Below, piece after piece: positions 6,554-57,157 of a stretch of DNA of 64,000 nt. Position 1 is the first letter of the stretch; the number at the start of each line of letters is the position of its first letter. The notes below the pieces were generated by a model. It saw only the letters and a list, made by a program, of their open reading frames with translations, was not told where the DNA came from and did no database searches. The stretch is from an uncultured Methanosarcinaceae archaeon. GTDB lineage: Archaea; Halobacteriota; Methanosarcinia; Methanosarcinales; Methanosarcinaceae. The position numbers and the translations under genes were made by a program. The stretch is taken from assembly GCA_963833425.1 (NCBI GenBank), contig CAWHXP010000008.1, positions 276,578 through 340,577 of the forward strand, in the 5' to 3' direction.

Positions 6554-7258
6554 ATGCATACCGGATTTCTTACTATTTATTGGCGAGAAATGCTAAGATT
6601 TGTCCGATTTCCAGCCCTGCTGTTCGCTACACTTATCCAGCCTGCCCTATGGCTAGCTTTTTTGGAATTGCAATGTCAAATAGTTTTGATAGGCTGCCAC
6701 CAACCTTGCCCCGATTCTAGGCATCAGGACGGTAGGCTTCCTGACCTTCATAGCTGCAGGCGTTATTGCCATGAACACGATTTTTACGAGCCTCTTAGGA
6801 GGAACTGTGTTGCTCTTCGGACTCTGATTGGATTCAAATTTTTTGAAGGTTACACTGAGCTACAGGTTTTTGTTTCATTGTTTGATTTATGCTTTTTATA
6901 GGGATATTTTCTCTCGGATTTATTTTTCTTTCAGTTGCGATCGCAATAACTATGGACAGTCCGGAATGTATGTGAACAGTAATAACTCTGCTTAATATAC
7001 CTTTCTTTTTCACGAGCAATGCACTTTACCCTGTGAACTTTTTCCCCCTATATTCAGAGCTCTGTCCGCAGTAAATCCACTAAATTATCTCATCAATGGG
7101 ATCAGATATTTCAAATAGGAAACGATTTCTCACCAATAGGAATCTATTACACTTATACTCAGGGAGAAGTTCTTGTTTCGTTTTTAGATCTTGGGGCTTT
7201 TGCAGGAATAATGCTTCTTGTTTCGCAGCGAAGATTGAACAAGGTTACCGTTTTATGA
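6554..7258 (+). pseudogene. ABC-2 type permease, multiply frameshifted
   Basis: Starts MHTGFLTIYWREMLRFVR...LIQPALWL; pieces such as LNIPFFFTSNALYP and AVNPLNYLING lie in different frames. Confidence 0.85.
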
Positions 7259-7427
7259 GTCAAGTACCCGAAAATACAAGAGAATGCTACCATAAAAGAC
7301 TGCTAGCATTAAAGGAATAATTTGAAGGTATGTAACCACACTAGTACGGTAAAAATCAAACTTGCGTTTGTGTACATCGTTGCAAGTAACGGGTTATGTT
7401 CGCGCCGGCGTTCCTTTTAAAGTTTTA

Positions 7428-7966
7428 TTAGCAGATAGAAAAGACTGAATTCATTTCATCTATAGCAGGTGGATACGCTGGATTCTTATCAACAGTTATT
7501 ACTCTTGGAATTTGATTATGATTCGAACTTGAAGCTTTCTTAAAGAATCTCTTCGCCGCTTTTCGGTTTCGTTTTGCACTTAACATGAAATCGATTGTAT
7601 CTCCATTTAAGTCAACTGCTCGGTAAAAATATTTCCATTTACCTTGTACTTTGATATAGGTTTCATCAACTCTCCACGAATAGTTTGTGGGTCTGAAATG
7701 TCTTCTTATATTCTTTTCTATTTCAGGGGAATATTGATGCACTCATCTCATTATAGTACTGTGATCAACTTGAATTCCTCTTTCTATCATCATTTCCTTT
7801 AAATTTCTATAGCTCAGTAGGTATTTTAAGTACCATATCACCTTCAATAGGATAATTTCTCCTTCATAATGCTTCCATTTAAAGGAATTAGATAGCAATT
7901 ACTATCTATCTTTGGTTTTCTTTTTATTCTATTGTATCATTAGAAAGGATTTTTTGCAACGGAACC
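7428..7966 (-). mobile_element. IS6-family element remnant (one TIR plus truncated transposase)
   Basis: TIR GGTTCCGTTGCAAAA ending at 7966; FKWKHYEGEIILL...VDHSTIMR*VHQY (TGA at 7743-7745)...WRVDETYIKV...ITVDKNPAYP, then truncated; second TIR not seen. Confidence 0.9.
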
Positions 7967-7973
7967 GTCAATC

Positions 7974-8381
7974 CTAACGATTTCTTTTTAATTTAATTAA
8001 CACCTCTTTCATTGAAATGCGAGAAGAAGGCTCATGTGCAAATTCTGCTAATTGCTTTAGGCGTGATACTTTTTTCTTTATGGCTGCTTCTCTTAAGCTT
8101 AACAGCGAAGAACCAATCGTAATAAAGTGATTTCGATCAGTACCTGGAGTGTACTGCACGAGATCAAAAGCGGGATAGGATCCTCCACGAGCAAAAGCTA
8201 CTATTGAGGGGTCTGAACAGATCTGATCACCGATGTGATTTCGATTTTTAAAATGAGGTTCATTATCATATCCTTCGATCTCTATGTCCAGATGGTACAT
8301 TTTACCAGAAGAAGACATAGGGCACTCAAATTCGCCCCAATAATAGATTAAGTCATTTTCATGCCCTGCTTTGGTACTCAT
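7974..8381 (-). CDS. Hypothetical protein, probably 5'-truncated or chimeric
   Basis: 135-aa ORF with no recognised motif; its ATG overlaps a gene fragment on the opposite strand (8363-8680). Confidence 0.45.
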   Translation of the reverse strand: MSTKAGHENDLIYYWGEFECPMSSSGKMYHLDIEIEGYDNEPHFKNRNHIGDQICSDPSIVAFARGGSYPAFDLVQYTPGTDRNHFITIGSSLLSLREAAIKKKVSRLKQLAEFAHEPSSRISMKEVLIKLKRNR

Positions 8382-8680
8382 ATACAGATTTCAATGAGTG
8401 TATATGGATACCAAGACAAGACCAATATCAAGAAATCTGTATAAACTTTTTTGCACATAATCTTCGATTATCGAGACATGACGCATTCTCACGATTTTTG
8501 GAATGGTACTTCAGTTGCCTTAAAGAGACCGCTGAAACAGGGATAAATTATGTGAATAATGGCAAATATGAATATATTGATTCGTGTGACGAGTTGATGT
8601 TGTTATATACTATGAGTATGTTGCACGGTAAAAAATGGGAAGGGGAAAACTGGGTAAGGTCAGTTCTTGGGTATTATTAG
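8363..8680 (+). pseudogene. 5'-truncated hypothetical protein, paralog of 54770-55006
   Basis: Open frame ALLWYSYTDFNECIWIPRQDQYQEICINFF...HGKKWEGENWVR; CIWIPRQDQYQEICINFF aligns with CIWLPRQNQLQEISIEFF near 54860. Confidence 0.75.
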
Positions 8681-8923
8681 TGCGAGTTCTCGCTCAATCA
8701 TTCTGTCACAATTTGGCACTCCAACCGAACTCTCGGAAACGTTCGACGAACTTCTCAGGTTATCGCCAAGGTAAATAACGGCTTGTCCATGCAAAGGCCG
8801 TGAGACTCTGTCATCAGGTGACCAGAAATTTATAAAGGTAAATCGAAATCCTTTATAAAAGTTAAAATAAACCAGGAGCTGAAAGTAAAAAGAAATTGTA
8901 AGAGAGATTTCAGTTTCAGTATT

Positions 8924-10021
8924 TCAAGTAAACTCGTAGTTGCACCTGCCTCCCTCAGGATCAAAACATCGATTACAGGATACACACATTGCCCTTTTAG
9001 CTTTCCCAAACTTAAGTTTCGAGACAAGATCTGGCTCGCAGATTAATGGCCTACTCATGGAAACCAAATCTGCAAACCCTCCTTCAAGCAGATTTTTCAT
9101 AACAGAAAGGGACCGAATGCCCCCTACAAGCATTACAGGGATATTTACTGCTTTTTTTATTGCTTTAGAATATTCTCTAAAATATGCTTCTTCAACAGGA
9201 GAATTAATTGCGGTTCTTACGGTTGCTTCCCCTGCCTCACTTATCCCTCCACTAACTTCAATTGAGCACACTCCAGCTTTCTCCAGAAGTTTTGCAGTCT
9301 CCATAACTTGCAAAATAGTAATTCCAAGCTCTGTTTTTTGCGAACCCGGCTTGAAACCATCCGTTGCATTCAATTTGACAAAAATAGGGAAATCAGCTCC
9401 AGCTAGTTCTTTTATTCGCTTGACAATCTCTGTTACTATTCTTGCTCTGTTTTCCACTGAGCCACCCCAGTGATCAGCTCTTCTATTTGTATATGGGGAA
9501 ATGAAATTACTTAAAAGGAAGCCATGGGCACAATGGAGCTGTACGCCGTCAAAACCTGCTTTTTTTGCCCGGATAGCTGCTTTTGTAAAGGCCTCAATTA
9601 CTTCCAGTATTTCCTGTTCAGTCATTTCCCTAGGTACAACTCCCGAGAATTCATCTTTGATTTCTGAAGGAGCCATAGGGACCGGGTATTCTTCAGAAAT
9701 TGCTGCCTGCCTCCCTCCATGCACTATCTGAAGTACAATTTTGCTTCTGTACCTGTGCACCATTTCGGTTATCTTCATATAGGGTTCAATAAAACGATCA
9801 TCATAGATTCCTTGCTGGTAAATCACACTCTGGCCACTAGGAAGTACATAAGAAAATCCTGTTATGATCAACCCGACGTCATTTTTTGCAAGTTCCTCGT
9901 AGAGATTCCCTAACTTTGAAGTGGGCTTTCCATCTTTTTCAGCCATGGATTCATGTGTTGCGGCTCTTACAAATCGATTCTTGAGATCCATGTTGCATAA
10001 GGTGATTGGATCAAAAATCAT
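8924..10021 (-). CDS. NADH:flavin oxidoreductase (old yellow enzyme family)
   Basis: LKNRFVRAATHE, LQIVHGGRQ, AGFDGVQLHCAHGFLLSNFISPYTNRRADHWGGSVENRAR, C-terminal CVSCNRC; start set at MIFDP. Confidence 0.95.
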   Translation of the reverse strand: MIFDPITLCNMDLKNRFVRAATHESMAEKDGKPTSKLGNLYEELAKNDVGLIITGFSYVLPSGQSVIYQQGIYDDRFIEPYMKITEMVHRYRSKIVLQIVHGGRQAAISEEYPVPMAPSEIKDEFSGVVPREMTEQEILEVIEAFTKAAIRAKKAGFDGVQLHCAHGFLLSNFISPYTNRRADHWGGSVENRARIVTEIVKRIKELAGADFPIFVKLNATDGFKPGSQKTELGITILQVMETAKLLEKAGVCSIEVSGGISEAGEATVRTAINSPVEEAYFREYSKAIKKAVNIPVMLVGGIRSLSVMKNLLEGGFADLVSMSRPLICEPDLVSKLKFGKAKRAMCVSCNRCFDPEGGRCNYEFT

Positions 10022-10151
10022 GGAAAATAGTAAGAGAGAGCAGGATAAATAATTATCCAGCATTCCTAAAAAAGAAAGTTTTTACCCAATAATTTTTTGA
10101 TAACTCGATCATTCCATATAAGAAAATAGACTGAAGCCTTTTCCTACCCGC

Positions 10152-10629
10152 CAATAAATGACTTAATTTCAGTTCTACAGTAGGTTTCTAATTTTCCTTG
10201 GTGGACACCCATCCTACTCAAAAAAAGGCTTAATTAGTTCCACAATCTATCTTATGCTGCTTTATTAAATGAGCCTATGTGGCTAGGCTGATCTTAAATT
10301 TCAAAAAAGTTGATCTTGTAGCTGCAGGGGGTCCTTGCCTGCAGCTGAGAGAATGCCCAAGTAAAGGTTCCAGAAAACCTTTGAATTAAAACTAGATTTA
10401 ATTTTATATATATTTTTTGCATATATTCTAAATAATACTAACCTAAACTAATTAGTAATTGAAATTACGTATTCCATATCTCGTAATTGTAGCATAAGAT
10501 AACGTTCAATGTTAGTCAATAAATGACTTAATCTCAGGTCCTACAACAGACTGATAATTAATTCTAAGTGAATACCTAACTCACTTGAGAAAGTGCCATA
10601 AATCGCCCCACAAACGCTCTTCTCCTGCT
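10152..10629. repeat. Two degenerate ~110-bp direct repeats (10152-10261, 10517-10629)
   Basis: Both begin CAATAAATGACTTAAT.TCAG and end CCACAA.C..TCTT.T.CTGCT; a third homolog lies on the opposite strand at ~53190-53295. Confidence 0.7.
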
Positions 10630-10990
10630 CTAGATATTACCAGAATTCGTGTTTTATTATGTTTTTTTAAATTATTATATTTGAATTTTTATTATTTTAA
10701 AGTAATATAAGTATATAAAAAAAATCTCATGGGTACTTACCGTGCAAATCCGGCAAAATATGGGGATTCAGTTTTGTCGAAAAACGACTTGTTCTCAGGC
10801 TACTTGTGAGACTTTTATTGAGAGTTTCATGTAAAAATCATTGCTCTGCTTAGAAAATGTCTCTAACGACCTTATAATGGCTCATATTTGAATTGACGCC
10901 TATAAACCTCGCTTCTATGCAAAATAAAACGAACTAAATATTAAATACAAGACTAACTAATATTAATTGTAAAGTAAAAACGGTGAACTT

Positions 10991-11080
10991 ATGGCACGCC
11001 CTTGTAAATTAACTCCTAAAATACAACAACGAATCGATGAAAATATTGCGTTAGAACTCACATATTCTTGGGCTGCCTGA
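10991..11080 (+). pseudogene. Truncated terminase-small-subunit-like HTH gene, paralog of 52660-52981
   Basis: MARPCKLTPKIQQRIDENIALELTYSWAA* aligns with MARPSKLTPNITQLIGENVVLGMTYGLAA; the ~90 bp upstream of both genes is also homologous. Confidence 0.75.
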
Positions 11081-11141
11081 TGTCCCTGAAGCAGTATTCT
11101 TAGCAAACTTTTGCGGGCTTATGGATGTAAAAGATTAGAAG

Positions 11142-11362
11142 AAGGAGTTTTTAGACCCCTTACTTTTTAACTGTTTTTAGGACGTTGGATACTTATTTCA
11201 AATAATTCCTACTTACTTAGCTTGATTGCTTTAAACACCAATTACAGTATTAAATACTACAATTGATACTTTAAGCAATCAAGTTAAGTAAGTAGAAATT
11301 ATTTGAAATAAGTATCCAACGTCCTAAAAACAGTTAAAAAGTAAGGAGTCGAAAAACTCCTT
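11142..11362. repeat. 221-bp near-perfect palindrome (possibly a MITE nested in a hairpin)
   Basis: 110-bp arms centred on 11252 with 10 mismatches by hand count; inner 145-bp segment 11180-11324 (GGACGTTGGATAC...GTATCCAACGTCC) is flanked by TA on both sides. Confidence 0.95.
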
Positions 11363-12410
11363 TTTATTTTTGATTTTGGCAGTGTACCTGGTGGATATGG
11401 TAGTGAACCTTATGGAACAATAGAAACACCAAATTTGGAATCTAACGGCCATACGGCTAAATATTTAAGGAAACATAAACACCATACAACCAAACACCAT
11501 AAAACAGGAAAAAAACACTTAGTATTAAAGTAGATAGAAAATAGTTGGATTTCTAGATAGGGTATCCACATCGAAAGCGTTGGACATCCTGTATTACAAT
11601 TTTGAAAATGAAACAACATTTGGTATTAATATTTTAACAAAAAGATCAGTTAGACTGTAAATAAACTTGTTTGTTTAAAATCAAATCTGTATGTGTTTCT
11701 CTATACTTTTAGGTTTGTGAGTGTTAGGGTTAATAGTGTAGATCTACAAATTTTGAATATTTTATTCATATTACCTGATCTTGTAGACAGCTAAAGTAAT
11801 AAATTTAAGAAGAAGGTCAAAAGTAAACGGCATCTTTTTTGAGATTGGGGTATGTAGTACTAATGGGGAAATAACAGAATTAATCACATATGCCGAATAA
11901 GCTAAAGTAACTTATTATTATATGAGTAAATGTTGGTAAAATGATAAATTAGTATATTTTTCAGAAGTACTCTGGATAACCCGCATGATGAACAATAATA
12001 TTGATTCAAAATAGAGAATTTGAAATAGAGCTTAAAAATTAAACATATCTGGTATACTTTGCAATCAAATAGCTTTATGGTGTACGCCACGCAATGTATA
12101 CCATATGTTCACGCAATGGAATACACAATACTTTTCTTAATATGAACTGATATTTTCACGTATCTAAACAGTTTAGCCATGATTTAACTTTTAAGTAGTT
12201 CATTATAATAGATATAGAGTTACAGCTAAATGTTTATAATCCACTGGAGCTACTTTTGGGCAATTAATTGTTACTCGTTCATCAACTCCTACACCCACTC
12301 CAATGTCAAAGCAAAAAAGATCCAAACAACGTTAAGAAATAGTATTTACTTAGAACTATCAACAATATTTTTAGAGTCGAGTTAGAACTCTCAAGCGGTA
12401 ATATCTAGAT

Positions 12411-52464: not shown

Positions 52465-52480
52465 TTTTTGCAACAGAACC
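52465..52480 (-). mobile_element. Solo IS6-type terminal inverted repeat
   Basis: GGTTCTGTTGCAAAAA, one mismatch from the TIR ending at 7966; no adjacent transposase seen. Confidence 0.6.
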
Positions 52481-52659
52481 GAAATTTAAACATCATGTTT
52501 TTACCAGAAAATGCAGAAAAAGTAATTCTAGGTGGAACTTCTGGTAACTATAGATACAATTACGTCACCAAAAAGACAATAAGGAACCATATCATATTAA
52601 AAAATAGATCAAGTTAAGATGAAAAATCTAAGCATTTGATGACTCGTGACTTTCTATAG

Positions 52660-52981
52660 TATGAGCGAACTTCACGTCGGCCATAATCATTAGGGAACCT
52701 TCTCTCCAAAATCCACATGCAAACCTGGTAGTTTTCAGCTTCTGCTGCCGCGTTTAGTCACTGTAGACATTTCAAACCCCTTCTGCATTGCATTTCTCTA
52801 TATGTTTATAAAATTCAAAGTATTCTCCAGATTCTGACTTTTTGCCTTTCTGCACCCAATCATTAAAAGTCTGATATGTTAGTCCTGAGGATGCTGCTGC
52901 AAGGCCATAAGTCATCCCAAGCACCACATTCTCACCAATTAGCTGTGTTATGTTGGGGGTTAATTTTGAAGGTCTTGCCAT
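52660..52981 (-). pseudogene. Terminase-small-subunit-like HTH protein, frameshifted
   Basis: MARPSKLT...AAASSGLTYQTFNDWVQKG...; continues in another frame as LQ*LNAAAEAENYQVCMWILERRFPNDYGRR, a W.LERR.P..(W/Y)GR motif seen in phage TerS-like proteins. Confidence 0.7.
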
Positions 52982-53607
52982 GATAATCCCGTTTTTTACT
53001 TCTTATAAATAATATGAGTGACTCTTATACTTAATATTTACTTAGTTTACTCATGCATGAAGCCGCAATTAGGACTATCGACATCTACTAGGCTCATAGA
53101 TTTCTGTTCATAGAGATTCAGTCTCTTTACGTATGCTTTTATTAAAGTAGTCATGATACCTTCTAACATTTATTTAGACTTGGAGTCAAAAAGGCGATTG
53201 TGCAGCGATTTAAGCCATGTTCTTGGGCTAGATATGGTATATTCCATCAGAACAGTCAAAAAACTCAATGTAGGACAGGAGATTAAGCCTATTGAGGTAA
53301 CATGGAAAAAAAGCTTAACGAGATAATTTTAGCGGATAAAATGAAGTAGAAGAAATCTCATTTTGGAATTCGAGTATATTAATCGGCCAATATTACGTCT
53401 TGGTTTTTATATAAGCCAGTAAAAAGTTGCTACTTCTATTGTTTTAGAGGTATGAACCAGTATAGTAGTCACAATATCATATATTCACTTTCGGAACGTT
53501 AGGTAAGTTCTTGAAATCGTTACAGTTATTTTAATTTTACTATTAAAATATAAATATATATCTATATATACACTATTTTTTATAGATATAATTCAAAGTC
53601 GAAACAA

Positions 53608-53878
53608 AATTACACAAATTTCGGATTTCATAGACGAAAAATTACACCTTATTTAAAGAGAAATGAGTATGTAGAAACATTAAAAAATAAAAATTATACA
53701 AATTACACATTGTAGGAATAACCTATAGCTTCTTTATAGAGACTAGAATTAAGATTTCTCTTTATAGGTATATAGTCCTAATCTGTGTAATTTGTATAAT
53801 TTTATAGTTAAAGTAGTCCATTAGATATCAAAAAATGATATTCTAGTTGTGTAATTTCTGTGTAATTTCTGTGTAATT
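53608..53878. repeat. Convergent iteron-like array (AATTACAC/AATTATAC), candidate element origin
   Basis: Forward copies at 53608, 53640, 53692, 53701; reverse copies at 53784, 53793, 53848, 53859, 53870; perfect 20-bp inverted repeat 53690-53709 / 53784-53803. Confidence 0.85.
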
Positions 53879-54259
53879 CTTTTAATTTAAAGGGATTATA
53901 AACAGTTTGAGTTATCATCACGATCTAATTATTCCTTGACAGAATATTGAGCTAATCTCAAGATCAAAGATGTTTGTAATCTACCTAGTTAACTACATTT
54001 CAGCTTCTCCCTTTGTTTTTGTCCAAAATCTGATCGTTTCTATGATTGGACTTATTGTTTCGTCTTGTGGAAGATATTGTCTTCATTAATACTTTCATAG
54101 TTAAGACCAGTAAGTTCTTCTGCAATTGATCGTTTCATCCTAACTCCTGCGAAAGTCTTTTTTTCTCTAGTAATTCTGTTAGTACCAGCTCTCTGATAAG
54201 ATTCTTATTTTGTATCTGATGCACTCTTTTTAGACGAAGTTTAGTCAGATATACTAGGA

Positions 54260-54688
54260 ATGCCAAAAAAAATTAGTACGTCCATAAACACTAATATTTA
54301 TGGCAAACATTGGTATTTTGAAATTCCAGCTGATGACTTAGACCGTGCGAAGCGCTTCTACCACTCCCTGCTCGGGTGGAAGATTGAACCGACCAAAGCT
54401 CCTGTCCCTGATACATTGATGCGGTATCAGGATATCGTAACAGGAGATTCAAATGTAGGTACTCCTATGGGTGGTACTCTCAGCATGGGTGGGATGCATA
54501 AGCGGAGGATGAACGAGTCAATCGTCAACTATGTGATGGTAGACGATATCGACGAAAAGATTACGACGGTAGAGAAACTGGGAGGAAAGATCGCCGTACA
54601 AAAACGGGAATTAGAGTTCTTGGGGCAGTTTGTGATCATCCAAGACACCGAAGGAAACGTCATAGCTCTCTTCAAGCCAAAAATGTAG
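54260..54688 (+). CDS. VOC/glyoxalase family protein (native start at 54300 appears frameshifted)
   Basis: YFEIPADDLDRAKRFY..LLGW, NYVMVDDID, GGKI, QDTEGNVIAL; ATG GCA AAC ATT at 54300 is out of frame with the body of the gene. Confidence 0.8.
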   Translation: MPKKISTSINTNIYGKHWYFEIPADDLDRAKRFYHSLLGWKIEPTKAPVPDTLMRYQDIVTGDSNVGTPMGGTLSMGGMHKRRMNESIVNYVMVDDIDEKITTVEKLGGKIAVQKRELEFLGQFVIIQDTEGNVIALFKPKM

Positions 54689-54769
54689 ATGATACATTCC
54701 AAGACTTTACCGAAGAATAGTGAATTATCGCAGATAAAGACAGAGCGGTGGTTCGTTATTATATGCAAA

Positions 54770-55006
54770 AAAGCTTCATATTCTAACATATCCATATTCC
54801 GCATAAAGAATTCGATGCTTATCTCTTGAAGCTGATTCTGTCTCGGTAACCAGATACACTTGCTCACATCTTTTGTAATATGCCACTACCACACGCTTGC
54901 GGCACCGTCTATAACATCATAAACATAATCCCCGTTTCATAGCCCCACTTGTGCTGTATTTTCTTTGCGAGAGCACATATTCTAATGACTTTTCTGAGAG
55001 GTCCAT
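54770..55006 (-). pseudogene. 3'-truncated hypothetical protein, paralog of 8363-8680
   Basis: MDLSEK / ICALAKKIQHKW / SVW*WHITKDVSKCIWLPRQNQLQEISIEFFMRNMDMLEYEAFLH, with frameshift and stop. Confidence 0.7.
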
Positions 55007-55182: not shown

Positions 55183-55886
55183 ATGTGTGGAGCGTATGGA
55201 TTTTCAATAAAAAACATAAAAGATGTGTATGATAGGTTTTTTATAGAAAATACTTTAGAGAATTTTAAACCAAGATGGAACATCAGCCCAGGACAATTAA
55301 ATCCTTTATCGTCAATCACGAGAAAAAGGAAATTGATTTGATTTTTTGGGGACTACTCCCTAATTTTGCCGAAGATGAGCATTATAAATACAAAGCGATA
55401 AATGCTAAAGCTGAAACATTTGATAAATTGCCTACATTCCGCCAACCGTTTCTTCATAAACGTTGTTTTATCCCAGCGATAGGGTTTTACGAACCAGATC
55501 AGATTCATTTTTTAAAAAATCCCTTCCAGTGGCACTATTTCCAGATGAAAGACCATTCAATTTTTGCCTTTGCTGGGCTGTATGACGTTTGGAAAGATAA
55601 AAAGAACATGAAAGAAATCCATAACTACACGATCATTACTACAATACCTAATACGACTGTTGGCAAATATCATGATAGAATGCCTGTTATTTTAGAAAAA
55701 GAGGATGAAGACGTATGGTTGAATCCTGATATTGTTGAAGCGGATCAGCTTTGCCCCTTATTGAAGCCCTTGCCTGACGAAAAAATTGAAGAATGGGAAG
55801 TTGGAGATGAAGCAAGAAATCCAAGAAACGATTATCCAGAAGTTATTGAGCCATTTAAAACCAACAGGCAAAGAAGCTCATTCTAG
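55183..55886 (+). pseudogene. SOS response-associated peptidase (SRAP/YedK/HMCES), frameshifted near 55303
   Basis: N-terminal MCG, RWNISPGQ, then WGLLP, INAKAET, RCFIPAIGFYE, FAGLYD, YHDRMPVIL in another frame. Confidence 0.9.
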
Positions 55887-56048
55887 TAATTTTTTATTAC
55901 TGTAGAATCTACGAAGGATAGAGATTTATGGTTCCGACAGTAGCTGGAAAAATACTCTCCTCGTTGACTTGACAGAACCAAAAAATAAATCCTGAATACT
56001 TTCACCTAACTCCCTTTAACCTTATGATCTTTTATAATCTGATATTTC

Positions 56049-57157
56049 ATGATGCTTGCTCTCAATCCTAAAGCAAACAATACCGACAGGTGGATAGTTC
56101 TTCATGTAGATATGGACAGTTTTTTTGCGTCCGTGGAGGTCAGGGAAATGCCAGGAATAAAAGGACTGCCTGTTGTGGTGGGTTCTGACCCTAAAGGGGG
56201 GTCAGGCAGAGGAGTTGTAAGCACCTGTTCTTACGAGGCACGAAAATACGGAATTCATTCGGCAATGCCAATTTCACAGGCATATAAACTCTGTCCTGAG
56301 GCTGTCTTTTTGCCTGTCAACATGAAAGCTTTATGCACAGGTTTCGGCAAACGTAATGGAGATCATGAAAGGGTTTGCTGAGAAGTTTCAGCAGGCGAGT
56401 GTTGATGAAGCCTATCTAGTGCCAGGACCTGAGATAAAGAGTTTTGAAGAGGCTGCAATTTGTGCTCTCAAGATCAAAGATGAAGTTCAACGTCAGGAAA
56501 GAATTACATGTTCAGTTGGAGTCGGACCGAATAAGCTTATTGAAAAGATCGCTTCAGGTTTTCAGAAACCGGATGGTCTTACAGTTGTTCGACCTGAAGA
56601 TGTCAGATACTTTTTTTTCGCTAAACGTCTCAAAAATCCCTGGAATAGGTGAAAAAACAACAGAATCCCTAAAATTGATGGGGATAACCAAAGCTGAGTA
56701 GCTAGCAAGCTGTGATATCCATAGGCTTTCTGAAAGGTTCGGGAAAATGGGGCTCTGGATGAAGCAGGTGGCGTATGGTCTAGATTTCAGTGAAGTAAAG
56801 GAATGGGAGGAAGCGGTAAAGTCAATAAGCAGGAGTGGGACATTTGAGGAGGATACAAACGATCCTGTAAAAATTGCTGGCTTTCTGGAAATGCTTGCTG
56901 AGAGTGTTCATAGAGCTCTCCTAAGAGATAGTTTTCTTTTCAAAAAAGTAAATCTTAAAGTTCGCTATTAAGACTTTTCCACATATACACGCTCAAAGAC
57001 TATCCCAGTCTGGACTTCGGATATCTTCGTGATTAAAAGGACAGCGATTCAGCTCCTTTCGGAGTTTATTGGAAGTCAAAAGTTTAGACTTGTTGGTGTG
57101 GGGGTTACAAAACTTAGGGAAAGAGACGAGAGGGAAACCCTGATTACAGATTTCTAA
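56049..57157 (+). pseudogene. dinB: DNA polymerase IV (Y family), several frameshifts and stops
   Basis: [57 protein letters not shown]-box-like ETLITDF; TAG at 56699, TAA at 56969. Confidence 0.93.

Follow-up and report, generated by a model that had tools for sequence, protein, structure and literature searches.

Two decayed loci in a Methanosarcinaceae genome are very probably remnants of an integrative element family ending in a small-terminase-like gene

What kind of element left two similar sets of broken genes on a single contig of an uncultured Methanosarcinaceae archaeon? The loci, copy A (8363–11080, forward strand) and copy B (52660–55006, reverse strand), lie in a window of 64,000 nucleotides on contig CAWHXP010000008.1 of assembly GCA_963833425.1 (positions 276578–340577 of contig C8 of this genome, coded G000, which is 80% complete). 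Both contain a gene called CIW here after a motif of its product, an enzyme gene on the opposite strand, a non-coding motif (M) and a gene resembling that of a viral small terminase (terS). A first-pass annotation, made from the letters alone, had read them as two independent, decayed insertions of one integrative element family with a variable cargo slot, whose cargo outlived the backbone. Bacterial phage satellites that steal the packaging machinery of a helper by means of their own small terminase are well studied, and the viruses of Methanosarcina are barely known. Our results indicate that both loci are very probably remnants of a single element family ending in the terS-like gene. The fuller statement, that each is the dead right-hand end of a small integrative element of satellite type, which replicates itself and has no capsid, has in our judgement an even chance of being correct. 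Neither copy can work, as copy A retains the non-coding region and 29 terS codons, and copy B a helicase stub, iterons and a frameshifted terS.

The relationship between the two loci was established by a pairwise blastn comparison, a check proposed with the original claim, which gave three colinear matches. The best joined the start of terS and its upstream region (window 10911–11044 against 53063–52928; 73% identity over 137 nt; E 3e-15). The matches between the motifs (10505–10545 against 53307–53269; E 0.01) and between the CIW genes (8397–8436 against 54860–54821; E 0.035) were weak, and both became firm through sequences from outside the window. An intact 146-aa CIW relative from a locus in another genome (L051) matched copy A at 8366–8677 (91%, E 2e-63) and copy B at 54936–54769 (41%, E 2e-12) in tblastn. 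An nhmmer profile of motif M, built from 23 family copies, matched 10500–10634 (E 4.2e-34) and 53289–53187 (E 5.8e-7), as well as a further site in copy A at 10133–10269 (E 3.6e-17). The two loci thus have in common, in the same order and above chance, the CIW-family gene, a motif of about 120 nt and the terS-like gene with its upstream region, as had been claimed; chance similarity between A and B was ruled out by the E-values of these shared parts. Details of the original description required revision. The motif of about 110 bp noted there is real (10500–10634), but copy A holds two motif copies around another repeat, segment X. As for the gene calls, the CIW gene of copy A lacks its first 42 codons, that of copy B is a fragment, and neither terS is intact. 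The start given for copy A, 8363, lay 3 nt from the true breakpoint at 8366.

Copy A begins with the 5′-truncated CIW gene (8366–8680, +; residues 43–146 of the 146-aa relative), followed by an intact gene for an OYE-type NADH:flavin oxidoreductase of 379 aa (8924–10063, −; Pfam Oxidored_FMN, E 3.6e-73, profile positions 2–340 of 342). Beyond it lie, all on the forward strand, the first copy of motif M (10133–10269), segment X, consisting of a hairpin and a very AT-rich stretch (10285–10457; 16–32 blastn matches in the genome itself), the second copy of M (10500–10634), and a conserved leader of about 310 nt directly upstream of terS (10668–10990; 70% identity to the leader of an intact copy, −323 to −6). 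The leader contains TATA-like boxes and a GGTG ribosome-binding site. The terS-like pseudogene itself (10991–11080, +) ends in a stop after 29 codons, and the remainder is missing (tblastn, residues 1–29 at 10991–11077, 59–69%). Past this stump lies a long palindromic repeat of 194 nt resembling a miniature inverted-repeat transposable element (11155–11348, no strand assigned; 90% self-complementary over 227 nt), and whole or partial versions of it occur at some six other sites of the genome. The break beyond the stump may be marked by this repeat. In an Rfam scan of 10000–11500 the palindrome alone gave matches, all to hairpin (plant) miRNA models and below their thresholds. On the other side, a remnant of an IS6-family (IS240-type DDE) transposase occupies 7411–7966 (−; Pfam DDE_Tnp_IS240, E 1.6e-27); the break truncating copy A follows 400 nt to the right of the terminal inverted repeat of this remnant (7951–7966, one mismatch). 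Judged from coverage, this genome holds about 70 copies of IS6. A 135-aa open reading frame (ORF; 7974–8381, −) that has neither a family nor a second genome copy occupies the stretch from the IS6 end to the CIW breakpoint. This ORF is possibly spurious or chimeric, because its start codon lies inside CIW-derived sequence.

The origin of copy A was clarified by L051, in which a block (6599–8429) is 95.4% identical to window 8366–10194 and begins exactly at the breakpoint. Both the CIW gene (146 aa) and the OYE gene are intact in L051; an intact 751-aa primase-polymerase (Prim-Pol)/helicase gene with TPR and DHH/DHHA1 genes stands on one side of them and an intact terS of 149 aa on the other. 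Copy A and L051 have different flanks, and M and X are arranged in another order. Given this block with differing surroundings, copy A either broke off from an L051-type element or arose from one by recombination. The proposal of two independent decayed insertions of one family accordingly stands only in part: the loci are decayed pieces of one integrative family, but the independence of copy A and its decay in place are left without support. The OYE gene also accompanies CIW in L051 and the locus L054 (95% nucleotide identity), and stands upstream of a terS in a further locus, L048 (81%).

Copy B has suffered more internal damage. Its CIW pseudogene (54769–54936, −) covers residues 28–83, with an in-frame TAG upstream, and its 3′ half has been replaced by an intact VOC/glyoxalase-family gene of 142 aa (54260–54688, +; Pfam Glyoxalase E 7.7e-8, Ble-like_N E 7.4e-8). 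Next comes the 3′ stub of a replicative helicase of the DUF927/Cch type, which we take to be the kind found in staphylococcal islands (54058–54195, −; residues 495–540 of 552; tblastn 61%, E 1e-11). The full helicase gene exists on another contig of the genome (C7:350287–351942) and encodes a DUF927 domain (E 2.6e-34) with a Cch helix-turn-helix (HTH); window 54192–53608 is 75.6% identical to C7:351772–352354. A word search identified a putative origin in the form of an iteron array (53607–53879, no strand assigned) of nine TGTGTAATTT-like words, four on one strand and then five on the other. Nine of the 17 matches to such words in the window thus fall within 273 nt, and the genome has just one other such cluster, upstream of a different terS copy. 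The B-type leader (53522–52982) contains an M-like motif (53187–53289, −; nhmmer E 5.8e-7), and its part at 53336–53522 matches the region upstream of an intact B-like terS in a locus of another genome (L059). The terS-like pseudogene (52638–52981, −) was delimited by tblastn with three intact relatives, and its 69-aa piece matched PHROG 4102 (E 6e-9). Its reading frame holds for residues 1–68 and is then broken by a frameshift near 52778 and an in-frame stop; residues 69–111 continue in another frame, and the C-terminus is gone. Downstream-region alignment revealed a probable remnant of a convergent coiled-coil gene (52468–52617, +) adjoining a solo IS6 terminal inverted repeat (52465–52480, −; exact match, 0.10 expected by chance), and window 52478–52428 matches the region downstream of the C7 terS copy. 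An IS6 inverted repeat is therefore found near each locus, as had been noted, and IS6 activity probably did part of the cutting.

The C7 locus (C7:348000–354000, L187) seems to represent a more complete third element type and offers the best template for reading copy B. It comprises a short relative of a 370-aa reverse gene, two small ORFs, the 552-aa helicase gene, 11 iterons, a leader, terS with a damaged start region, and the coiled-coil gene.

If CIW and terS marked the two ends of a backbone, with a dedicated slot for opposite-strand cargo after CIW, as the first-pass annotation proposed, this arrangement should recur across the family. Several observations fit such a plan. Each locus does carry a different intact opposite-strand gene, OYE in A and VOC in B, and these genes have outlived the broken element genes around them. 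CIW lies 2–3.5 kb upstream of a same-strand terS, and is followed by an opposite-strand enzyme gene, in A, B and the pair L051/L054, and, as a weak lead, most of the ESM Atlas clusters nearest to the CIW protein are viral. In addition, two of the four CIW loci in this genome adjoin one of the roughly 32 terS copies, by our own rough estimate far more often than by chance, so that common descent from CIW-bearing elements fits better than coincidence. Against the plan, CIW occurred in only four of 85 genome contexts of terS (A, B and the near-identical L051 and L054) and in none of 80 metagenome contexts. The gene was present in 10 of 19 other genomes of the genus, in one to three copies, mostly without any terS and in ordinary chromosomal neighbourhoods conserved between two species; among five of these CIW-bearing genomes, two had terS, nowhere near CIW. 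The other two CIW copies of this genome (C3:172000–177000 and C20:59500–62700) are located away from terS, downstream of SIR2-like and P-loop NTPase genes in a setting resembling a defence island. The VOC gene of copy B, moreover, cuts into both its neighbours, sitting between truncation points inside the CIW gene and the helicase gene, and there is consequently no cargo slot in copy B. As a family-wide rule, the two-ended plan is largely refuted, and we regard it as highly improbable. CIW, whose product matched no Pfam, PHROG or NCBIfam family, is instead an accessory gene carried by a sub-lineage of these elements, and CIW, OYE and VOC are all accessory or captured genes at broken edges.

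The character of the family depends chiefly on its last gene. Intact terS copies encode 140–149 aa, and three of them matched PHROG 4102, 'terminase small subunit', over residues 1–126 (E 5e-22 to 5e-25). With a profile of 40 sequences, the best PDB sequence match was the small terminase gp1 of Shigella phage Sf6 (PDB 3HEF, 4DYC; positions 2–108, E 0.036). An AlphaFold model (pLDDT 85.9) contains an N-terminal HTH (helices 9–18, 25–31 and 36–48) and a long helical hairpin (53–82 and 86–100), and in Foldseek, the comparison suggested at the outset, its six best PDB matches were all Sf6 gp1, with probability up to 0.96. The named BFVD matches were all viral proteins, nearly all of tailed phages and many annotated 'terminase small subunit' (best E 1e-6). 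The likeness to Sf6 gp1 extends to about the same length (140 aa), an N-terminal HTH starting G/A-R-P-S/T-K, the helical hairpin and a W-x-L-E/A-R ... YG-R/K motif within the aligned region. The two proteins differ in that identity is 18% and the E-value is 0.036 with the sequence profile and 0.09 with Foldseek, and in that no large terminase follows the gene here. A 36%-identical relative (E 3e-13) in two sister-genus genomes does overlap the start of a Terminase_6N/6C large terminase gene, near a Mu-F-like gene, in what are proviruses. Taken together, the PHROG, PDB, fold, BFVD and provirus evidence indicates that both the fold and the ancestry of the protein are those of a small terminase, as the first-pass annotation had suspected. 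The gene is also under purifying selection: among 21 distinct intact copies (210 pairs, 196 of them unsaturated), the unsaturated pairs gave a median pN of 0.22, a median pS of 0.64 and a dN/dS of 0.18. The label 'transposase' on family members was dismissed because it stems from the automatic names of one source.

Copies of terS were unusually numerous in this genome. A profile built from six intact copies (E ≤ 1e-5) gave 32 matches here versus zero to three in each of 120 other Methanosarcinaceae species genomes (14 with any), and a search with the 69-aa piece of copy B gave 34. An open frame of at least 140 aa was retained in seven of the 26 matches that were extended, the others being truncated or interrupted. 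Relatives elsewhere comprised 59 loci in five Methanosarcina or Methanosarcinaceae metagenome-assembled genomes (MAGs) and one record labelled otherwise. Grouped at 90% identity, the family as a whole formed 754 clusters; at 50% identity it had 7485 representatives, and hundreds of its members came from peat and soil metagenomes. One of the collected loci, L073, lies on a 1.19-Mb contig labelled as an Alphaproteobacteria MAG; its terS match statistics are the same as those of the Methanosarcinaceae MAG L074, and the contig is probably mis-binned or chimeric.

To describe the surroundings of terS, 26 contexts from this genome and 59 from MAG records titled uncultured Methanosarcina or Methanosarcinaceae from bog, fen and soil (together the 85 genome contexts) were complemented by 80 metagenome contigs. 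ORF clustering of the 85 contexts, with cluster names confirmed by Pfam and PHROGs, recovered a family A DNA polymerase with exonuclease, sometimes fused to an NrS-1-type primase and DUF3987 (19 loci), a 131-aa protein (16), a convergent coiled-coil protein just downstream of terS, matched by generic coiled-coil models alone (16), a tyrosine integrase with a zinc ribbon (14; Phage_integrase E 1e-21), a Prim-Pol/helicase (14; also identified by Pfam and PHROGs), a 77-aa HTH protein (13) and the IS6 transposase (11). Several further small HTH proteins recurred as neighbours. In a Methanosarcina species with a single-copy element (L102:10306–10851), the convergent gene just downstream of terS showed a C-terminal match to an HNH endonuclease (PHROG 1271, E 4e-6). 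HNH genes beside terminase genes are typical of cos-type packaging modules. Among the 80 metagenome loci, tblastn detected the integrase in three, the polymerase in six and the Prim-Pol helicase in nine. No capsid, portal, tail or large terminase (TerL) cluster was found in the 85 contexts, and tblastn with TerL, Mu-F and portal-like proteins gave no match in any of the 80 metagenome loci; as the former check covered clusters present in at least four loci, rare or novel structural genes could escape it. A large terminase is thus not directly next to terS in either set.

Within these contexts, terS was always the last gene in the forward direction, 3.3–9.1 kb (mostly 5.0–9.1 kb) downstream of the integrase. 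Both window copies are without an integrase. The replication modules observed in between were Prim-Pol, DUF927 with the Cch HTH, D5_N/DUF5906, and DNA_pol_A with exonuclease. In other Methanosarcina species, single-copy relatives presented an integrase, a 410-aa reverse gene, a primase, a DUF927- or D5-type helicase and terS, and the C7 element a DUF927 helicase with Cch HTH, an iteron array, a leader and terS; both correspond to the SaPI-like succession of primase, DUF927/Cch helicase, iterons, leader and terS. In the 60 contexts with at least 8 kb of upstream sequence, a replication gene was present in 20, a tyrosine integrase in 10 and both in eight, so that the co-occurrence expected of an integrative element was indeed observed.

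Of these 60 contexts, 33 had no backbone gene cluster at all, and several consisted of intact leader–terS modules amid ordinary or housekeeping chromosomal genes. This keeps two competing explanations alive, one in which the TerS-like protein is a plasmid-type regulator, and one in which the leader–terS module has been independently retained or moved. According to the latter, the module is a unit of its own, either a packaging decoy kept by the host against tailed viruses or a cassette of about 1 kb moved, for instance, through IS6-type cointegrate formation, and its linkage to a backbone is secondary. Besides the backbone-free contexts, this explanation draws on the purifying selection acting on intact copies, on IS6 copies or solo ends adjoining many modules (11 of 85 contexts as well as A and B), and on the accumulation of 32 profile matches in one genome, with seven of the 26 extended ones open over at least 140 aa. 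Conversely, the copies compared had neither terminal repeats nor target duplications at the borders of the module, its edges differ from copy to copy, most MAG loci have no IS6 nearby, and many solo copies are visibly decayed. The 149-aa protein moreover consists of an HTH and helices with no catalytic domain, and on this ground, together with the varying edges, an insertion sequence or transposon was rejected. An independent module therefore appears improbable, only slightly less so than the two-ended plan with its cargo slot.

The non-coding DNA upstream of terS provided further insight into how the elements may be organised. Intact terS copies are preceded by 0.3–0.8 kb of conserved non-coding DNA, of which the leader of about 310 nt was matched in 71 of the 85 contexts, mostly from about −310 to −1. 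Its p-distance among the 21 distinct intact copies was 0.37 versus a synonymous distance of 0.64, and this lower divergence indicates that the leader is constrained. Upstream of it lie interchangeable repeats, namely M, X or iterons. Motif M occurred in 35 of 80 contexts and segment X in 30 of 80, within 1.5 kb upstream of terS; this genome contains 35 copies of M, 13 of them within 1 kb upstream of a same-strand terS. The subtype represented by C7 and copy B has TGTGTAATTT words in two opposed blocks instead of M and X. An RNA gene was rejected for motif M, as no consensus fold was obtained (RNAalifold energy 0 on both strands for 23 copies; single-sequence z-score −0.78), and Rfam returned nothing beyond chance-level rows for 10000–11100. 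The upstream region could combine a putative origin, a promoter and a likely binding site of the TerS-like protein, with segment X as a possible origin core.

In the gene order observed, a live member of the family starts with a tyrosine integrase at its left end, followed by a replication module built around a Prim-Pol/helicase, around a primase next to a DUF927/Cch helicase, or around a fusion of a primase with a family A polymerase. Next come 0.3–0.8 kb of conserved non-coding DNA, with iterons or M/X repeats and then the leader of about 310 nt, and the last gene encodes a protein of 140–149 aa of the Sf6 gp1 type of small terminase. The non-coding stretch would hold the origin and the site bound by the TerS-like protein, which would in turn recruit the large terminase of a helper tailed virus. 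The element could thus be packaged and spread as a satellite, by analogy with the phage-inducible islands of bacteria. That the family consists of helper-dependent satellites is, in our view, a possibility that falls just short of even.

Several results weigh against this satellite interpretation. No helper virus was identified. In the incomplete genome itself, Terminase_6N, TerL_ATPase, Terminase_3 and HK97 capsid models gave no match, and it thus offered no large terminase or capsid gene. A Terminase_6N gene was present in eight of 40 genomes of the genus; in five genomes carrying it, there were four terS-like matches (in two of the five), none of them beside Terminase_6N or on its contig. 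A scan of IMG/VR viral contigs with the terS alignment yielded 82 pattern matches, none of which was confirmed. Integration boundaries were equally elusive, as direct repeats of at least 13 nt were absent from 13 of the 14 integrase contexts, the remaining one (L061) giving only two AT-rich 13-mers, and tRNA genes abut only a few members, with no partial tRNA copy detected at the opposite end. No Pfam or NCBIfam terminase model matched the terS-like protein, whose TerS membership therefore rests on PHROGs and the weak PDB profile match, and the PDB matches by sequence and fold are individually weak. Finally, a pure story of decayed insertions explains the backbone-free contexts poorly.

Part of this evidence would also be accommodated by integrated plasmid-like elements with no link to viruses, in which the TerS-like HTH protein is a DNA-binding regulator, a replication accessory or a partition protein acting on the repeats that precede its gene, perhaps with the convergent coiled-coil protein as a partner. 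The failure to find a helper, a large terminase or a capsid gene in this genome, the 80 metagenome loci or the genomes with Terminase_6N is consistent with such plasmids; M, X and the iterons directly follow the replication genes, a position expected of a plasmid origin or centromere; the coiled-coil gene follows terS in 16 of 85 contexts; and the protein has weak matches to MerR-like and Hin HTH domains. On the other hand, small terminases of tailed viruses are what it matches best at every level, along its full length and not only in the HTH, and one relative occurs together with a large terminase in real proviruses. Furthermore, retention of a terminase-type last gene across three replication backbones is the behaviour of a satellite. 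We therefore consider the plasmid explanation unlikely, although clearly less so than the independent module.

Comparison with known systems places the satellite interpretation in context. Bacterial SaPI/PICI elements (phage-inducible chromosomal islands) are small, with an integrase at one end, their own primase and helicase, an iteron origin and a small-terminase gene near the far end, and they have no large terminase, capsid, tail or lysis genes. The terS elements share with them the integrase end, the replication module, the iterons, the distal small terminase and the lack of structural genes. In contrast, they are archaeal, have three alternative replication modules including one with a family A polymerase, reach about 30 copies per genome, most of them decayed, and contain no recognised genes for capsid size or interference. 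Among archaeal elements, pSSVx, pSSVi and the haloarchaeal satellites, as far as covered in the portion of bioRxiv 10.1101/2025.02.15.638363 consulted, are likewise small, carry plasmid-type replication genes and are helper-dependent or proposed to be so, whereas their helpers are spindle-shaped or other non-tailed viruses, or they encode a capsid protein or ATPase. A strategy using a small terminase only is not mentioned for archaeal satellites in that portion. The prim-pol elements of archaeal 'dark matter islands' (PMC4158269, main text) are also small, integrated and capsid-less, with a prim-pol/helicase fusion, and a satellite nature has been proposed for them too; they differ in their prim-pol family and hosts, and the word 'terminase' does not occur in that main text. 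The parts of the literature covered (including PMC4158269, bioRxiv 10.1101/2025.02.15.638363 and PMC13573593, with the main methanogen virus catalogue and supplements lying outside this scope) described neither small-terminase satellites in archaea nor this Methanosarcina family. A bolder proposal is doubtful, namely that tailed viruses of Archaea have here their first PICI-type satellite with a small terminase, which has expanded to about thirty copies per genome in one Methanosarcina lineage of peat and soil, and that the many solo modules under purifying selection serve the host as packaging decoys against these viruses.

If a satellite family of this kind is abundant, it implies that active tailed helper viruses exist unseen in methane-producing peat soils. 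Genes would also be transferred by such a family, as its elements take OYE, VOC, DHH and other accessory genes with them. The combination of leader and terS provides a ready marker for finding such elements, and the terS family explains a large share of the repeated 'hypothetical' and 'transposase' genes in these genomes. The window itself yielded a modest result, two dead fragments beside intact accessory genes, and the interest lies in the family.

Some minor observations were made around the terS loci. Two terS remnants at C2:14167 and C2:22871 lie 8.7 kb apart, each with a tRNA gene at +806 (Lys and Thr according to ARAGORN; 96% alike over 78 nt), which looks like a tandem duplication including a tRNA gene. 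Two CRISPR array candidates in the genome were dropped as coding repeats. Next to copy B, window 55275–57150 contains a gene for an SOS-response-associated peptidase (SRAP), followed by a Y-family (DinB-type) polymerase gene split over several frames. In L059 the polymerase is intact (370 aa) and the same pair stands beside the intact B-like terS, with the SRAP gene inverted. A comparison of the insertion in copy B with an empty site in L059 was abandoned, because this inversion shows that the loci are rearranged and not colinear. Downstream of copy A, a short repeat at 12200–12378, also present in about 10 related loci and at five places in the genome, is situated just upstream of an EamA-like transporter gene.

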